Source: a virus (Duplodnaviria > Heunggongvirae > Uroviricota > Caudoviricetes). From it: 4,524 nucleotides of DNA. The stretch lies in IMG/VR virus record IMGVR_UViG_2671180603_000005. One strand, given 5' to 3'. Positions 1-4,524 of this stretch are shown piece by piece. Position 1 is the first letter of the stretch, and every line of letters begins with the position of its first letter. A program made the translations under genes and the position numbers. The notes below the pieces were generated by a model, which searched no databases, was not told where the DNA came from, and saw nothing but the letters and a program-made list of their open reading frames with translations.

Positions 1-22
1 TCCTGTGCCGTTTTTCAGGTAT

Positions 23-46
23 AAAAAAACCCGCATAAAGCGGGCT
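23..46 (-). terminator. Rho-independent terminator downstream of the Q-like gene (tR'-like)
   Basis: On the minus strand: GC stem CCCGC (44..40) pairing with GCGGG (34..30), 5-nt loop TTTAT, followed directly by a run of 7 T (29..23). It lies about 75 nt downstream of the Q-like stop codon. Confidence 0.7.
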
Positions 47-123
47 CTTTCAAATGTCCATGTCTGCTATTCGCCTCGCGGTACAGCTTTGCGAAGCGTA
101 CAAGAATTGAAGCAGTTTTTACG

Positions 124-678
124 TCAAAAAGCAATAACTTTTTTCTCTATACCAAAAGCCATAACCATTGGTTTGTACAAAATAAATTCTGCCACCTTTA
201 GCCAATGCTCAATGCGTCTTTCACAGGTTCTTAAACTCCATTTCGGGTGTGCATCATTCAGCAGTTCAGCCATTTTGCGTTTGGTCATCCCCCGCCCCTC
301 ATACCGTTGCCGAAGGACGCTAATCAATCCTGGATGCTCTGCCAGCACCTCACTTATGACCCGATCAATACATAACGCCTCTGCATCAGTACAATGCGCC
401 AGCCAGCTCTTTTGCTTACCGTTAATCATATCCCGCAAAAAAGCCTCAAGTTCAGACTTGTTCAGACCTGCTTTTTTCATCCTCCGGAGCGCCTCGTTAA
501 TTGCCGTTTTTGTCAGCTTTTTAGAGGTCAACATCAGGTTAAACATATTCCCCGTCTTACCGCCACCAATATACGACCAGCGCCCCCACATACGTAGTTT
601 TCCCTGAATCCAGACACTTTCCAGCGTGGTGAGACGAAGGTGTTCTCCGCTTTTTCCTGTATTCGTTGGGTAAATCAT
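124..678 (-). CDS. Putative late-gene antitermination protein Q (phage 82/21-type family), 184 aa
   Basis: ATG at 678..676 is preceded by GGAGGG 5 nt upstream; the track ORF (start 798) is a longer upstream extension. Contains a WGRW motif and a C-terminal basic region as I recall for non-lambda Q families. Position is typical for Q: last gene before a strong terminator and right after DUF1367/DUF1364 genes. Family assignment is from memory, not searched. Confidence 0.55.
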   Translation of the reverse strand: MIYPTNTGKSGEHLRLTTLESVWIQGKLRMWGRWSYIGGGKTGNMFNLMLTSKKLTKTAINEALRRMKKAGLNKSELEAFLRDMINGKQKSWLAHCTDAEALCIDRVISEVLAEHPGLISVLRQRYEGRGMTKRKMAELLNDAHPKWSLRTCERRIEHWLKVAEFILYKPMVMAFGIEKKVIAF

Positions 679-965
679 AAATATCCCTCCTTTCTCCAGA
701 TTTCTTGTGTGCGAAAAACACCTTCTGCATGCATCAGGCGTAATTCTTCTTTGGTGTAATCGCTGGTTTTTACCCGCCCGTCGATTAAATCGTGGCACGA
801 GCTACAGGCAATCGCTGCCTGCATATCGTGTGGCTTTATCGCTGTTCCGCACGTTCCCGCCAGTCGGTAATGCGCCAGCACAGACGTTTCCGGATCGTGA
901 TTGCAGTAGCCAGGAATTCTGACGGTGCACATCTGCCCCCGCGCCGCTTTACGTAAATCCACCAT
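675..965 (-). CDS. DUF1364 family protein (YbcO-like, Cys-rich putative zinc-binding/nuclease-like), 96 aa
   Basis: Translation MVDLRKAARG..CTVRIPGYCN..ETSVLAHYR..ACSSCH resembles my recollection of DLP12 YbcO. GGAG sits 8 nt upstream of the ATG at 965. Its stop overlaps the Q start (ATGA), and its start overlaps the upstream stop (TAATG), suggesting translational coupling. Confidence 0.6.
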   Translation of the reverse strand: MVDLRKAARGQMCTVRIPGYCNHDPETSVLAHYRLAGTCGTAIKPHDMQAAIACSSCHDLIDGRVKTSDYTKEELRLMHAEGVFRTQEIWRKEGYL

Positions 966-1270
966 TACGCAAACTCCAGCAGCTGCGCGGCCACATTTTC
1001 GACTTGTTCCGGAGAGGAAAATTTACGGAACAGAATCCAGTTCCACAGCACATTCAGAACAGATTTATAAACCTGCTGAAACTCGGTTTCGTCCATATTC
1101 GCAAAAGCGATGGATTTTGCCCGACGCCCGCGGCTACCGTCCGGATAAAAATGTTCGGTGTAAAATCCAGCCTGAATGGTTACCCACTCGCGAAAAGCCT
1201 CAAACGACTTTAGCAATGCCGTATCCCGGGTTCTGCGTGTCGCAACTGTATTCAGATATTGCTCTGCGGC
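965..1270 (-). pseudogene. 3' fragment of a DUF1367-family gene (C-terminal ~101 codons), in frame but with no ATG start
   Basis: Open frame runs from the TAA at 1273..1271 down to the stop at 967..965. It encodes ..AAEQYLNTVATRRTRDTALLKSFEAFREW..QQVYKSVLNVLWNWILFRKFSSPEQVENVAAQLLEFA. The track's start at 1216 is a TTG codon. The first ~70 codons duplicate the 3' end of the upstream ORF (1271..1774). Confidence 0.55.
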
Positions 1271-1273
1271 TTA
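1064..1273. repeat. Tandem repeat unit 2 (210 bp) of a divergent in-frame tandem duplication
   Basis: 1064..1273 aligns base-for-base with 1274..1483, with about 12 mismatches in 210 bp (~94% identity). The offset is exactly 210 bp (70 codons). Confidence 0.85.
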
Positions 1274-1774
1274 TTTATAAACCTGCTGAAACTCGGTTTC
1301 GTCCATATTCGCAAACGCGATAGATTTCGCCCGACACCCACGGCTACCGTCCGGATAAAAATGCTCGGTGTAAAATCCGGCCTGAATGGCTACCCACTCG
1401 CGGAAAGCCTCAAACGACTTTAGCAATGCCGTATCACTGGTTCTGCGTGTCGCAACTGTATTCAGATATTGCTCTGCGGCTTCGCTCAGAGCTGGCGTAT
1501 GTTCCCGGCCTACTGATTCACACAGGTAATCAACGAAACCGGACACCAGTTTTCGTTCGCGAGGCGTGATCGCCCCACCGACCGGAGTCCAGTAATCGAA
1601 ACCCAGTTGCAGGAGTTTGAAAAAACGCTTGTGGAATGCGTAGTTACACACACGCTTAAAGTCTGCGTGTATCCACTCACCTATTTTGATTTGATGCAGA
1701 AAATCGCAACTCTCCGGCGTCGCCGGGAGAAGTAATCCGGAAGAGGTTTGTTTGATCAGTTGTATATGCGCCAT
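1271..1774 (-). CDS. DUF1367 family phage protein, 167 aa, C-terminally truncated by a stop at the duplication junction
   Basis: ATG at 1774..1772 with GGAG 6 nt upstream. Translation MAHIQLIKQTSSGLLLPATPESCDFLHQIKIGEW... The intact protein is inferred to be ~199 aa (167 aa plus the 32 aa that follow the repeat in the downstream fragment). Confidence 0.6.
   Translation of the reverse strand: MAHIQLIKQTSSGLLLPATPESCDFLHQIKIGEWIHADFKRVCNYAFHKRFFKLLQLGFDYWTPVGGAITPRERKLVSGFVDYLCESVGREHTPALSEAAEQYLNTVATRRTSDTALLKSFEAFREWVAIQAGFYTEHFYPDGSRGCRAKSIAFANMDETEFQQVYK
1274..1483. repeat. Tandem repeat unit 1 (210 bp), inside the DUF1367 ORF
   Basis: Partner of 1064..1273. The junction triplet at 1271..1273 (plus-strand tta) reads TAA on the minus strand and terminates the upstream ORF, where the corresponding codon in the other unit is GAA. 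Confidence 0.85.
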
Positions 1775-1800
1775 CGTAGTTCTCCGCTGGCGCAGTAGAA
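1553..1800. repeat. Dispersed direct repeat, copy A (5' end of the DUF1367 gene plus ~25 bp upstream)
   Basis: 1553..1774 matches 2283..2504 with only 2 mismatches. The upstream portions (1775..1800 vs 2505..2530) are more diverged. The copies lie 730 bp apart in direct orientation and flank the IS2 fragment. Confidence 0.85.
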
Positions 1801-1816
1801 TGGGTGTTCAGCCCGT

Positions 1817-2282
1817 TGGATTTGCCCCTATATTTCCAGACATCTGTTATCACTTAACCCATTACAAGCCCGCTGCCGCAGATATTCCCGTGGCGAGCGA
1901 TAACCCAGCGCACTATGCGGATGCCATTCGTTATAATGCTCGAACGCCTCTGCAAGGTTCTTTGCTGCCGTTAACCCGTCTGGTTTGGGCATGATACTGA
2001 TGTAGTCACGCTTTATCGTTTTCACGAAGCTCTCTGCTATTCCGTTACTCTCCGGACTCCGCACCGCCGTGTTCTTCGGTTCAAGTCCCAACATCCGGGC
2101 GAACTGGCGTGTTTCATTAGCCCGGTAGCATGAACCATTATCCGTCAGCCACTCCACTGGAGACGACGGAAGATCGTTGCCGAAGCGGCGTTCCACCGCT
2201 CCCAGCATGACGTCCTGTACTGTTTCACTGTTGAAGCCGCCGGTAGTCACCGCCCAGTGCAGTGCCTCACGATCACAGCAGA
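1817..2282 (-). mobile_element. Truncated IS2 (IS3 family): right-hand ~466 bp including the terminal inverted repeat
   Basis: Plus strand 1817.. reads TGGATTTGCCCCTATATTTCCAGACATCTGTTATCACTTAACCC, which matches the IS2 right inverted repeat as I recall it. The adjacent minus-strand ORF encodes the InsD C-terminus. Homology ends abruptly at about 2282, so roughly 865 bp of the 1331-bp element are absent. Confidence 0.8.
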
Positions 2283-2283
2283 T
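1828..2283 (-). pseudogene. insD: IS2 transposase InsD (OrfB), C-terminal ~150 codons only
   Basis: Translation ..[150 protein letters not shown] matches the IS2 InsD C-terminus. The N-terminal part and insC are missing. Confidence 0.8.
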
Positions 2284-2504
2284 CGTTCGCGAGGCGTGAT
2301 CGCCCCACCGACCGGAGTCCAGTAATCGAAACCCAGTTGCAGGAGTTTGAAAAAACGCTTGTGGAATGCGTAGTTACACACACGCTTAAAGTCTGCGTGT
2401 ATCCACTCACCTATTTTGATTTGATGCAGAAAATCGCAACTCTCCGGCGTCGCCGGGAGAAGTAATCCGGAAGAGGTTTGTTTGACCAGTTGTATATGTG
2501 CCAT
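2247..2504 (-). pseudogene. Truncated second copy of the DUF1367 gene (first 74 codons) fused into IS2-derived sequence
   Basis: ATG at 2504..2502. Translation MAHIQLVKQ...AITPRER is nearly identical to the N-terminus of the 1271..1774 ORF, then continues as [11 protein letters not shown] out of frame through IS2 sequence to a stop. The track's start at 2546 is a TTG extension. Confidence 0.6.
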
Positions 2505-2530
2505 CGGCTTTCTCCGGTGGCACGGTGTTA
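2283..2530. repeat. Dispersed direct repeat, copy B (second 5' end of a DUF1367 gene)
   Basis: Near-identical to 1553..1800 (see copy A). Confidence 0.85.
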
Positions 2531-2542
2531 CACAGCAGGAGT

Positions 2543-2830
2543 TCAATCCTGCTCAAGATTGTAGATGAGTTTATTCTTCAGCAAAAGCAGAAAACCAGCC
2601 TTAAAACCAATCTCTTTCAAAACCCGTAATGATGTGACAAATTCGTCCTCACGCAAAATAAAACCGTCCGTCAGAAGTCCATTACAAAAATAAAATAACA
2701 CAGCACCGCTCTTCCTTTGTTGAGATTGCAAACATCTAATGCGGCAATGGCTGACAATCGCTCCATTCTCAACGCGCACAGCATAGAGGCCATTTTCACT
2801 AAAAATTTCACGCAATTCTTCGATTTTCAT
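2543..2830 (-). CDS. Hypothetical small protein, 95 aa (phage orphan ORF; occupies the position of rem in Qin-like prophages)
   Basis: ATG at 2830..2828 with GGAAGGA about 8 nt upstream and a candidate promoter further upstream. No recognisable motif. Its stop abuts the upstream region of the truncated DUF1367 copy. Confidence 0.45.
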   Translation of the reverse strand: MKIEELREIFSENGLYAVRVENGAIVSHCRIRCLQSQQRKSGAVLFYFCNGLLTDGFILREDEFVTSLRVLKEIGFKAGFLLLLKNKLIYNLEQD

Positions 2831-2911
2831 CTTCAGAATCCTTCCAGATAAATAGCTCTCCCCTGTTCGGGGTCCATCCCTCTTCTCCCTGCGCGCTACT
2901 TAAGTGAGTCG

Positions 2912-2939
2912 ATTCTATCTGCGAAGGTGCGCGAATCAA
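2912..2939 (-). promoter_or_regulatory. Candidate sigma70 promoter for the 95-aa ORF
   Basis: Minus strand: -35 TTGATT (2939..2934), 16-nt spacer, -10 TAGAAT (2917..2912), about 80 nt upstream of the ATG. Hexamer match only. Confidence 0.35.
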
Positions 2940-2954
2940 ATTCACCGGAAATAA

Positions 2955-3002
2955 ACAACAAAAAACCCGCCGAAACGCTGAGAGATCACAGCGATGGGCG
3001 GG
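2955..3002 (-). terminator. Intrinsic terminator at the 3' end of the hok transcript
   Basis: Minus strand: CCCGCC..CGCTG / CAGCG..GGCGGG interrupted stem-loop (3002..2966) followed by TTTTTTGTTGTTTATTT. It lies about 80 nt downstream of the hok stop. Confidence 0.6.
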
Positions 3003-3079
3003 TTAAGTGCGGGTGCGTTGAGGATGCCTGACACATCAGAGGTGGGCAGGGATGGGATCAGCTCCCCGCCCGGTCACTC

Positions 3080-3235
3080 TTACTTCCTGGATTCGTAGTC
3101 TACGAAGACAGCGACCTCCGTCTGGCCGGTTCGGATTCGTACCTCACAGAGGTCTTTCCTCGTTACCAGTGCCGTCACTATGACGGTTAAACAGATGACG
3201 ATCAGGGCGATTAACATCGCCTTTTGCTGCTTCAT
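3080..3235 (-). CDS. hok: Hok/Gef-family type I toxin (small membrane peptide), 51 aa
   Basis: Translation MKQQKAMLIALIVICLTVIVTALVTRKDLCEVRIRTGQTEVAVFVDYESRK closely resembles HokD/RelF as I recall it, with the hydrophobic helix and conserved Cys. AAGGAG sits 9 nt upstream of the ATG at 3235. The track ORF (start 3292) is an in-frame upstream extension. Confidence 0.85.
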   Translation of the reverse strand: MKQQKAMLIALIVICLTVIVTALVTRKDLCEVRIRTGQTEVAVFVDYESRK

Positions 3236-3411
3236 AGCCTGCTTCTCCTTGCCTTTCGGCATGTAAGAGGCTAACCTACATGTGCAAAGCATGAAATTGG
3301 CCTCAGATTAATGTTAAGCGTCTTGCCGGACGCGTAATGTTAACTGGGGCTTTTCTCTATCTGCCTTTTGGTGTTCATGCCTGAAGCAGATAGCCTCAAG
3401 CACCCGCAGTC

Positions 3412-3441
3412 ATTCTACTTACCTCGCCAATATGAAATCAA
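3412..3441 (-). promoter_or_regulatory. Candidate promoter for hok mRNA
   Basis: Minus strand: -35 TTGATT (3441..3436), 18-nt spacer, -10 TAGAAT (3417..3412). It would give a ~170-nt leader before the hok ATG, consistent with the long structured leaders of hok mRNAs. Hexamer match only. Confidence 0.35.
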
Positions 3442-3462
3442 TCAGAAAGGTGCCCCATAAAA

Positions 3463-4149
3463 TCACTCCTTCTCTTCTTTACCGTAGTGGAGTTGACCAA
3501 TTTTGATAAGAGGGCGTCCCTGAGATTTGCGGTGTAGATTGGTATCGCGCAGAGAATACACACAGCCACAATATTCCTGCTGATAGAATTTTTCGCGCTT
3601 GCTGATTTCAATCATACGGGACGAGCCGCCCTGCTTGCGCCAGTTATAATCCCAGTACACCATGCCCGGATAATGCGCGACGGCTCGCCGCCCACAGTCG
3701 TTAACCTGCTGCATATTTTTCCAGCGTGAAATGCCCAGTGAACTGCTGATCACACTGAAACCATTTTCAGCGGCGTACAGCGCTGTCCGCTCAAAACGCA
3801 TGTCAAAACACATGGTGCAACGGATCCCTCGTTCGGGCTCCCATTCCATTCCTTTGGCTCGTTCAAACCAGTTGTCTGTGTCGTAATCAGCATCAATAAA
3901 CGGCACGCCGTGTTGTTCAGCAAAGCGAATATTCTCATCCTTACGAATTAAATACTCTTTCTGAGGATGAATGTTCGGGTTGTAGAAAAAGATGGTGTAG
4001 TCGATTCCCGAGGCCTGAAGCGCCTCCATCACCTCACCGGAACATGGAGCACAGCAAGAGTGCAGTAGTAGTTTGTTTGCCCCGTTTGGGAGCTCCAATT
4101 TGGGCCGTTTGAAATCAGCAACTGTCATAAATATGTTTATTGGGGTCAT
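3463..4149 (-). CDS. DUF208 / QueH-like protein (putative B12-independent epoxyqueuosine reductase homologue), 228 aa
   Basis: N-terminal [11 protein letters not shown] motif, a central RCTMCF CxxC pair and C-terminal YCGCVYS, matching the cysteine pattern I associate with the QueH/DUF208 family. Two candidate ATG starts (4149 and 4128), neither with a clear Shine-Dalgarno. Assignment is from memory and unverified. Confidence 0.55.
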
Positions 4150-4210
4150 AAAAATATCAAAGAGTGTAGCATTAGAACGGGGCTATCGGAAACAGATGTG
4201 TGACTGCTCC

Positions 4211-4226
4211 CCGCCCTTTCGGGCGG
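4211..4226. other. GC-rich hairpin (6-bp stem, tetraloop) between the partial CDS and the QueH-like gene
   Basis: CCGCCC-TTTC-GGGCGG perfect inverted repeat. No adjacent U-tract on either strand, so not a canonical intrinsic terminator. Confidence 0.4.
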
Positions 4227-4296
4227 TCTCCTGATGATTTGAGGGTGCAGAAATCCCTCCGGTTAAGGATTAAATTTTTAACAGTGCTAAATTTAA

Positions 4297-4524
4297 TTAT
4301 TCAGTTCTGGATTTTGTCGCCCTGCGTATCCGCGCTTTCGCGTTACGCTCAATCTGTATCAGCTTTTCTATATTTCTCCGCCTTTCCTGTTCCTCCTGGC
4401 GCAATAGCCTTACATCATCTGCCAGTCTGGTTTCTCTTTTTGCCACAGAGAGCATCCAGTCAAACGGCTCCACAACCGCACCGCAGATTTTACAGCGGAC
4501 CTGACGCTCTTTTTCGTCAACCCG
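4297..4524 (-). CDS. Partial CDS (3' end only, 75 codons; 5' end lies beyond the window), hypothetical protein with CxxC and a charged helical tail
   Basis: Minus-strand frame is open from the window edge to the TAA at 4299..4297. Translation ..RVDEKERQVRCKICGAVVEPFDWMLSVAKRETRLADDVRLLRQEEQERRRNIEKLIQIERNAKARIRRATKSRTE. Not in the ORF track because it runs off the window. Confidence 0.45.
   Translation of the reverse strand, partial: RVDEKERQVRCKICGAVVEPFDWMLSVAKRETRLADDVRLLRQEEQERRRNIEKLIQIERNAKARIRRATKSRTE

Follow-up and report, generated by a model that had tools for sequence, protein, structure and literature searches.

Traces of a probable two-lineage tandem array, with IS2 as a passenger, in the nin/Q region of a defective prophage

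A close known counterpart of the locus considered here is the Qin-type block Q-YbcO-DUF1367-Rem-HokD/sok-QueH, as found in FDAARGOS_944 (NZ_CP065613; L001). The closest intact relatives, L001 among them, have a single intact 600-bp DUF1367 gene that lies 38 bp from Rem. The second component of the locus is IS2, an insertion sequence of the IS3 family in E. coli and Shigella. A mobile IS2 is 1331 bp long, is bounded by left and right inverted repeats (IRL and IRR), and carries insC (OrfA) and a complete insD (OrfB) with a programmed frameshift. Loss of IRL, OrfA and most of OrfB bars transposition according to established IS3-family requirements. Insertion sequences can also act as substrates for homologous recombination, and large rearrangements in E. 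coli are reported to arise between homologous IS copies (PMC5009759).

The window analysed here, which is the whole 4,524-nt stretch of IMG/VR record IMGVR_UViG_2671180603_000005 (Caudoviricetes), is the nin/Q block of a defective, Qin-like lambdoid prophage. All of its genes lie on the minus strand in the ORF list. Pfam matches place a Q-like antiterminator (DUF1133) at 124-678, YbcO at 675-965, Rem (PF27490) at 2543-2830 and QueH at 3463-4149, while hokD and the sok antisense RNA occupy 3080-3405 (HOK_GEF Pfam match; Rfam RF01794, 117 bits). DUF1367 material, as delimited by ORFs and Pfam, extends over 965-2504. Gene order is that of the L001-type block, and identity to L001 is 99-99.9% outside the rearranged part. 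Compared to that block, the window has 940 extra bases (730 + 210), which consist of repeated DUF1367 pieces and IS2. YbcO and Q have been left intact, and DUF1367 has been destroyed, with no intact gene left in the window. The comparisons presented below suggest that the region is a non-functional scar, in which two prophage lineages, here named P_A and P_B and co-residing in some enterobacterial chromosomes, would have formed a tandem array that was later reduced by two deletions, with IS2 carried along as a passenger. We assign this history a probability of about 0.6.

Three DUF1367 pieces are recognised with PF07105, and none of them covers all 198 profile positions within a single ORF. 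The main piece, copy A (1273-1774), holds DUF1367 nt 1-502; its ATG is at 1774-1772, and ORF 1271-1774 (167 aa) matches profile positions 1-167 with E=7e-78. Copy B (2283-2504) holds nt 1-222, which are 74 codons of the P_B allele, and matches positions 1-76 with E=3e-34 (2247-2546). The third piece matches positions 118-198 (965-1216). Along the minus strand, the partial copies run D_B (1-222), D_hybrid (1-502) and D_A (293-600). Copies A and B are related by a 244-nt direct repeat (1553-1796 and 2283-2526; 97% identity) with a spacing of 730 bp. Intervals 1553-1755 and 2283-2485 both match one reference allele with 0 mismatches, so that 203 nt are identical; the first differences are at 1756/2486 and 1769/2499, beyond which the upstream flanks diverge. 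Copies A and D_A meet in an in-frame tandem repeat of 210 bp (1063-1272 and 1273-1482; 95% identity), whose left copy is the P_A allele and right copy the P_B allele by SNP typing. The joint of this repeat makes a TAA codon that ends ORF 1271-1774 at 167 aa; the 210-bp repeat has thus cut the main DUF1367 copy to 167 codons. This second repeat lies just outside the coordinates of the first-pass annotation, which missed it, and is part of the same rearrangement.

Between copies A and B lies a 465-bp IS2 remnant (IS2 nt 867-1331; window 1817-2281, minus strand). A 1331-bp IS2 copy with canonical ends was extracted from L003 as a reference and aligned directly to the window, where it is identical at 465 of 465 positions; the remnant is also 100% identical to IS2 copies in L014 and L018. 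The reference aligns at 2281..1817 and elsewhere yields just 10-14-nt chance words, which puts the exact breakpoint at IS2 nt 867, or window position 2281. Megablast extended the IS2 matches to 2303-2307, which is weak chance similarity past this breakpoint. The right inverted repeat is intact from 1817, at a distance of 42 bp (1775-1816) from the DUF1367 ATG. InsD retains its C-terminal 140 codons only (ORF 1828-2250), with partial rve and rve_3 domains. Direct alignment shows that IS2 nt 1-866, with the left inverted repeat, insC and N-terminal insD, are absent from the window. Unlike a mobile IS2, the window keeps only 35% of the element, with the IRR end as its sole terminus and neither insC nor a complete insD. 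The piece is an immobile remnant that cannot transpose because it is without IRL, OrfA and most of OrfB.

The first-pass annotation had described this anatomy accurately apart from small corrections. It reported an IS2 right-end remnant with intact IRR and C-terminal insD only, ending 42 bp upstream of the DUF1367 start; its length of ~466 bp is to be amended to 465 bp. A second copy of the first 74 DUF1367 codons does adjoin the truncated IS2 end, through an orphan base A at 2282. The chimeric ORF listed at 2247..2504 is also present, and its 85 aa comprise the 74 DUF1367 codons and 11 out-of-frame codons through IS2. The more diverged upstream flank that had been remarked upon corresponds to the difference between the P_A and P_B intergenic modules, which lie beside IS2 and Rem, respectively. 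An IS2 that extends across 1817-2530, in which the DUF1367-like segment would be internal to the element, is at odds with an alignment that stops at 2281.

Look-ups of Rem and Q proteins, by which the two lineages were found, show that many Shigella-type and E. coli chromosomes carry two versions of the block. P_B has the order QueH-HokD-Rem-DUF1367-YbcO-Q (e.g., L010, L019, L022), and P_A has the order HokD-(IS1)-hyp70-DUF1367-YbcO-Q (L016, L017, L018, L020, L021, L024). Chromosome CP061367.1 holds both, with L021 (P_A) and L022 (P_B) mutually inverted and about 1.09 Mb apart. Base-by-base comparison with these loci reveals a mosaic in the window. Positions 1-1272 are a P_A-type arm with the Q-like antiterminator, YbcO and DUF1367 nt 293-600 (965-1272); they are 100% identical to L016, L017, L018, L020 and L024 and include 11 diagnostic SNPs at 1106-1228. 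Positions 1273-1755 are P_B (100% identical to L022), with 19 diagnostic SNPs versus P_A at 1316-1683. P_A sequence returns at 1756-1817 with 100% identity, including the 42-bp upstream flank of DUF1367 (1775-1816), for which L016 has the uninterrupted target. IS2 follows at 1817-2281. Positions 2283-4524 are again P_B with two mismatches to L022 (3048 and 4224), and comparison with L022 identifies 2505-4524 as a P_B-type arm with the 38-bp flank, Rem, hokD/sok, QueH and an upstream partial ORF. Copy A is itself a hybrid, with P_B alleles at nt 20-502 and P_A alleles at nt 1-19 (0 mismatches to P_B over 1273-1755 and to P_A over 1684-1817). The homologous P_B/P_A crossover in this copy is confined to 1684-1755, between the last P_B SNP at 1683 and the first P_A SNP at 1756. 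Lineage SNP blocks switch at discrete points and both parents occur intact elsewhere, which is the pattern of an inter-prophage recombinant. A contribution of two related prophage lineages to the window is supported by this mosaic. P_B-type SNPs in copy A reach DUF1367 nt 459 and copy B has only 222 nt, which implies that a full-length P_B DUF1367 once stood in tandem.

Three joints were read from comparison of parental with recombinant sequences. J3 (1816/1817; GGGTGTTCAGCCCGTTGGATTTGCCCC), where the IS2 right end enters the P_A flank, is an ordinary IS2 insertion joint in the P_A sequence ...GTTCAGCCCGT/TATGTAG..., with the slash at the joint. J2 (2281/2283; GATCACAGCAGATCGTTCGCGAGGCG) connects IS2 nt 867 to P_B DUF1367 nt 222 with no homology and a 1-nt filler, the A at 2282, which is templated by neither parent. 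J1 (1272/1273; TTGCTCTGCGGCTTATTTATAAACCTGC) connects P_A DUF1367 nt 293 to P_B DUF1367 nt 502; it is blunt and has no microhomology. As a second P_A/P_B joint, it belongs to the same rearrangement history. An 8-nt inverted word (CGTTCGCG / CGCGAACG) near J2 was considered as a hairpin or template-switch cue and is too short to count. No novel joint lies at an IS terminus; the one at IRR goes back to the original insertion and is shared with a relative described below (L026). No transposase chemistry is therefore indicated. IS2 is a passive passenger, as the novel breakpoints all lie away from its ends and the rearrangement requires no transposase step.

These joints bear directly on whether IS2 itself mediated the inter-prophage exchange, through recombination between two IS2 copies or an aberrant transposase reaction, with the fragment and the duplicated DUF1367 5' region as direct products. 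The remnant does lie exactly between the P_B arm and the P_A flank, IS2-family insertions recur near the DUF1367 5' end (L004, L014 and window/L026), and recombination between homologous IS copies is a known cause of large E. coli rearrangements. Such mediation is nevertheless unlikely. A complete IS2 would be expected after exchange between IS copies, instead of a truncated piece that abuts DUF1367 codon 74, and the novel joint is at internal IS2 nt 867, with no homology and a 1-nt filler. Neither a second IS2 copy nor an IS end takes part, J1 and the P_B SNPs that extend to nt 459 of copy A would be left unexplained, and the IS2-internal joint of L026 is a plain 10-bp microhomology. Rearrangements of the type described in PMC5009759 have in common with the window an IS at the joint and a genome rich in prophages and IS elements, but they occur between two IS copies, whereas the window breakpoints are inside or outside the IS and have no transposase-type joint. 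IS-associated recombination between related prophages, which the first-pass annotation had proposed, can be retained for the two lineages in view of the SNP mosaic and not for the role of IS2, given the internal homology-free joint and the lack of a second IS2.

The relative that informs the history of the window most is L026 (IMGVR_UViG_2690316210_000010), in which the J3 sequence occurs twice, 2181 bp apart; this is its sole other occurrence in the collections searched. L026 has three tandem units with a 2181-bp unit composed of IS2 302-1331, the 42-bp flank, DUF1367, YbcO and Q'. In window orientation, it reads Q_A-YbcO-D_A-42 bp-IS2(1331 to 302), Q'-YbcO-D_hybrid-42 bp-IS2(1331 to 302), Q'-YbcO-D_B-Rem-HokD-QueH. 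Units are joined (GGCGGCAGCAAGTTCAGACTTGTTCAGACC) at a 10-bp microhomology, CAAGTTCAGA, which corresponds to IS2 nt 302-311 and to window positions 447-456 in Q; 14 positions and one indel distinguish the two repeat units. As 47% of the unit is IS2, there is nothing remarkable in a random deletion endpoint that falls inside it. The IS2 site is identical to that of the window, 42 bp upstream of P_A-type DUF1367, and the P_B left arm likewise lies behind Rem. The order of DUF1367 copies, with D_B behind Rem, then a hybrid with P_A 5' end and P_B body, then D_A, is also that of the window. In the middle unit, the outermost P_B-to-P_A switch falls within 1684-1755, as in the window, and a middle DUF1367 with a P_A 5' end and a P_B body is to be expected if a P_B first unit and a P_A last unit underwent unequal crossover.

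When 1971 bp and 1451 bp are removed from L026 in silico and one A is added, window positions 1-3771 are reproduced with seven mismatches. The 1971-bp deletion extends from nt 503 of the hybrid copy through D_A nt 292, and the 1451-bp deletion extends from D_B nt 223 through IS2 nt 866. Six of the seven mismatches belong to a single P_A-type conversion patch at 1508-1601, which the L026 middle unit carries in addition and which is not in the window; the seventh is at 3048. The right P_A arm of L026 is 100% identical to window 1-1272. L026 differs in having three complete units and a microhomology joint, whereas the window has stubs of units 1 and 2 and two different homology-free joints; microhomology at a novel joint is thus found only in L026 (10 bp), as opposed to the blunt J1 and the 1-nt filler of J2 in the window. 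The QueH-side arm of L026 also departs from the window, with 25 SNPs beyond 3772 and no alignment after 4199, and is a 100% match to common E. coli prophages. L026 is not the direct ancestor of the window. Shared descent of the two is plausible at most. The arrangement is indeed beyond the reach of a simple insertion or deletion if the ancestor had a single copy, but this fails as a general rule, since two deletions in an L026-type array reproduce the window.

The proposed history would begin in a P_A-type prophage, with a normal IS2 insertion at a point 42 bp upstream of DUF1367. An upstream DUF1367-YbcO-Q' block would then have been joined to IS2 nt 302 through short homology, which would have produced a direct repeat with its first unit behind Rem (P_B) and its last unit of P_A type. 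Unequal homologous crossover between the repeats could have expanded this to a three-unit array, in which the middle DUF1367 would have a P_A 5' end and be P_B thereafter. Finally, in the lineage of the window, most of units 1 and 2 would have been lost through two deletions independent of homology (about 1.45 kb and 1.97 kb), to leave DUF1367(1-74), IS2(867-1331), the 42-bp flank, DUF1367(1-167) and DUF1367(98-199)-YbcO-Q in succession. We infer this succession of steps, and the origin of the window in an array of this kind, from the comparison with L026. The array route is preferred over IS2-mediated exchange, a single replicative event and an artefact because copy A needs a full tandem P_B DUF1367, and L026 shows such a configuration. 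Several points weigh against it: one relative only (L026) was found, the proposed deletions remove both array unit joints and so leave no direct trace in the window, and the window structure, with J1 and J2, comes from a single assembly.

A single replicative event of the MMBIR/FoSTeS type could in principle account for both odd joints and for the homologous switch through serial template switching. The path would lead from P_B DUF1367 to IS2 nt 867 in P_A::IS2, through the P_A flank and DUF1367 5' end to P_B DUF1367, and from there to P_A DUF1367 nt 293. In keeping with such an event, the sequence changes three times between two templates in the space of 1 kb, its segments alternate strictly between parental alleles, and its joints are blunt or have a 1-nt filler. 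It is quite unlikely all the same: microhomology is normal at such joints and J1 and J2 have none, L026 is an existing stepwise intermediate with a full array and matching allele order, and multi-switch events are without independent evidence here and unnecessary. A bolder variant, in which the whole P_B/IS2/P_A/P_B/P_A alternation arose in one multi-template-switch event between prophages 1 Mb apart and the IS2 breakpoints at nt 302 and nt 867 mark a fragile or pausing site, is very improbable.

Searches for further copies, progenitors and intermediates covered several collections. Exact searches did not recover J2 in genome_contigs, viral_contigs or metagenome_contigs, or J1 in viral_contigs, and J3 was absent from genome_contigs and metagenome_contigs and occurred in viral_contigs only in L026. 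Among 5426 complete E. coli genomes, there was no window structure, no IS2 at the J3 site and no predicted IS2 left-end joint; the latter was also absent from viral_contigs. No exact-protein record was found for the 167-aa truncated DUF1367 or the 85-aa chimera, and a homology search with the chimera returned no protein that shares its IS2-derived tail. A progenitor with intact IS2 at the J3 site, or an intermediate, was found neither in E. coli (n=5426) nor in GTDB representatives, IMG/VR, JGI metagenomes and the protein collection; Shigella was covered through a small sample of exact-protein look-ups. Uniqueness of this kind could point to an assembly or library artefact, with mis-joins among near-identical prophages or within a tandem array, as no other sequence searched contains J1, J2 or the chimeric proteins, repeats abound in the region, and the allele switches coincide exactly with the joints. 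We consider an artefact rather improbable: the parents at J1 and J2 share no k-mer, which leaves a graph or overlap assembler without a path across, array collapse happens at homologous positions, and L026 independently has both the IS2/P_A-flank joint and the hybrid DUF1367 5' switch.

Neither the 140-aa 'integrase core' ORF nor the 85-aa chimeric ORF is a gene, and the same applies to the three DUF1367 pieces; annotation should label all of them pseudogene fragments of a single scar. The locus has little importance beyond annotation; it represents ordinary prophage and IS decay and no working or new system. It does offer a neat illustration of segments being exchanged, amplified and deleted by near-identical prophages in IS-rich Escherichia/Shigella genomes, and it makes clear that a joint with an IS fragment need not have been caused by that IS. 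Should the array-then-deletion history be confirmed, J1, J2 and J3 could serve as lineage markers. Look-ups with the truncated InsD ORFs gave only unrelated frameshifted IS2 copies. L004-type genomes (n=3) were rejected as progenitors because their IS2-like element is another one (94.7% identity) and is inserted elsewhere, 124 bp upstream. L014 was likewise rejected as an ancestor. Its intact IS2 has a 5-bp target-site duplication (GTAGT), whereas the left end is missing in the window and L026, and it lies inside DUF1367 codons 44-45 as an independent insertion.

The DUF1367 gene carries an in-frame tandem repeat of 210 bp (window 1063-1482), the left copy of which has the allele of P_A and the right copy that of P_B, the two prophage lineages whose alleles alternate along the window. 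The joint between the copies is blunt (1272/1273) and creates a TAA stop. The repeat is part of the same rearrangement as the IS2/DUF1367 scar. It lies beyond the interval 1553-2530, in which the first-pass annotation had described an IS2 fragment between two DUF1367 5' copies.

Three IS2-family insertions in different genomes all lie no more than about 260 bp from the DUF1367 5' end, are independent of each other, and are all oriented as the DUF1367 gene is. An IS2-like element (94.7%) lies 124 bp upstream of DUF1367 in one compared locus (L004:4357), IS2 lies 42 bp upstream at window 1817 and in L026, a three-unit tandem array with IS2 at the same site, and an intact IS2 interrupts DUF1367 codons 44-45 in another locus (L014:6462-7794), with target-site duplication GTAGT. 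The DUF1367 5' region may be a local hotspot for IS2-family insertion. Within the L026 array, the joint between a truncated Q gene (Q') and IS2 makes a 453-aa ORF on the plus strand (L026:8309-9670) that starts in Q' and continues into IS2 transposase sequence; its counterpart in the other unit is disrupted by a 1-nt indel.

On another E. coli contig, protein P0008 (141 aa) fuses DUF1367 residues 1-69 to the Q protein, a further independent deletion within the DUF1367-YbcO-Q block. Several other matches are frameshifted DUF1367 stubs, so decay of the DUF1367 gene is frequent.

Across window 2283-4223 the only SNP that sets the window apart from all P_B loci is at 3048, with A in place of G. 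In L011 an IS21-type insertion is flanked by a duplication of its 4-bp target, GCGG; position 3048 falls within this target, and L025 has an insertion at the equivalent position. The overlap with the IS21-type target may be a coincidence or a footprint. The hok/sok type I toxin-antitoxin module at 3080-3405 (minus strand) is complete, with a hokD ORF that matches HOK_GEF (E=1e-22) and a sok antisense RNA that scores 117 bits with Rfam RF01794, whose gathering score is 59. The QueH gene (epoxyqueuosine reductase, PF02677; 3463-4149, minus strand), with replication genes on one side and hokD on the other, is prophage cargo that is kept across P_B-type prophages.
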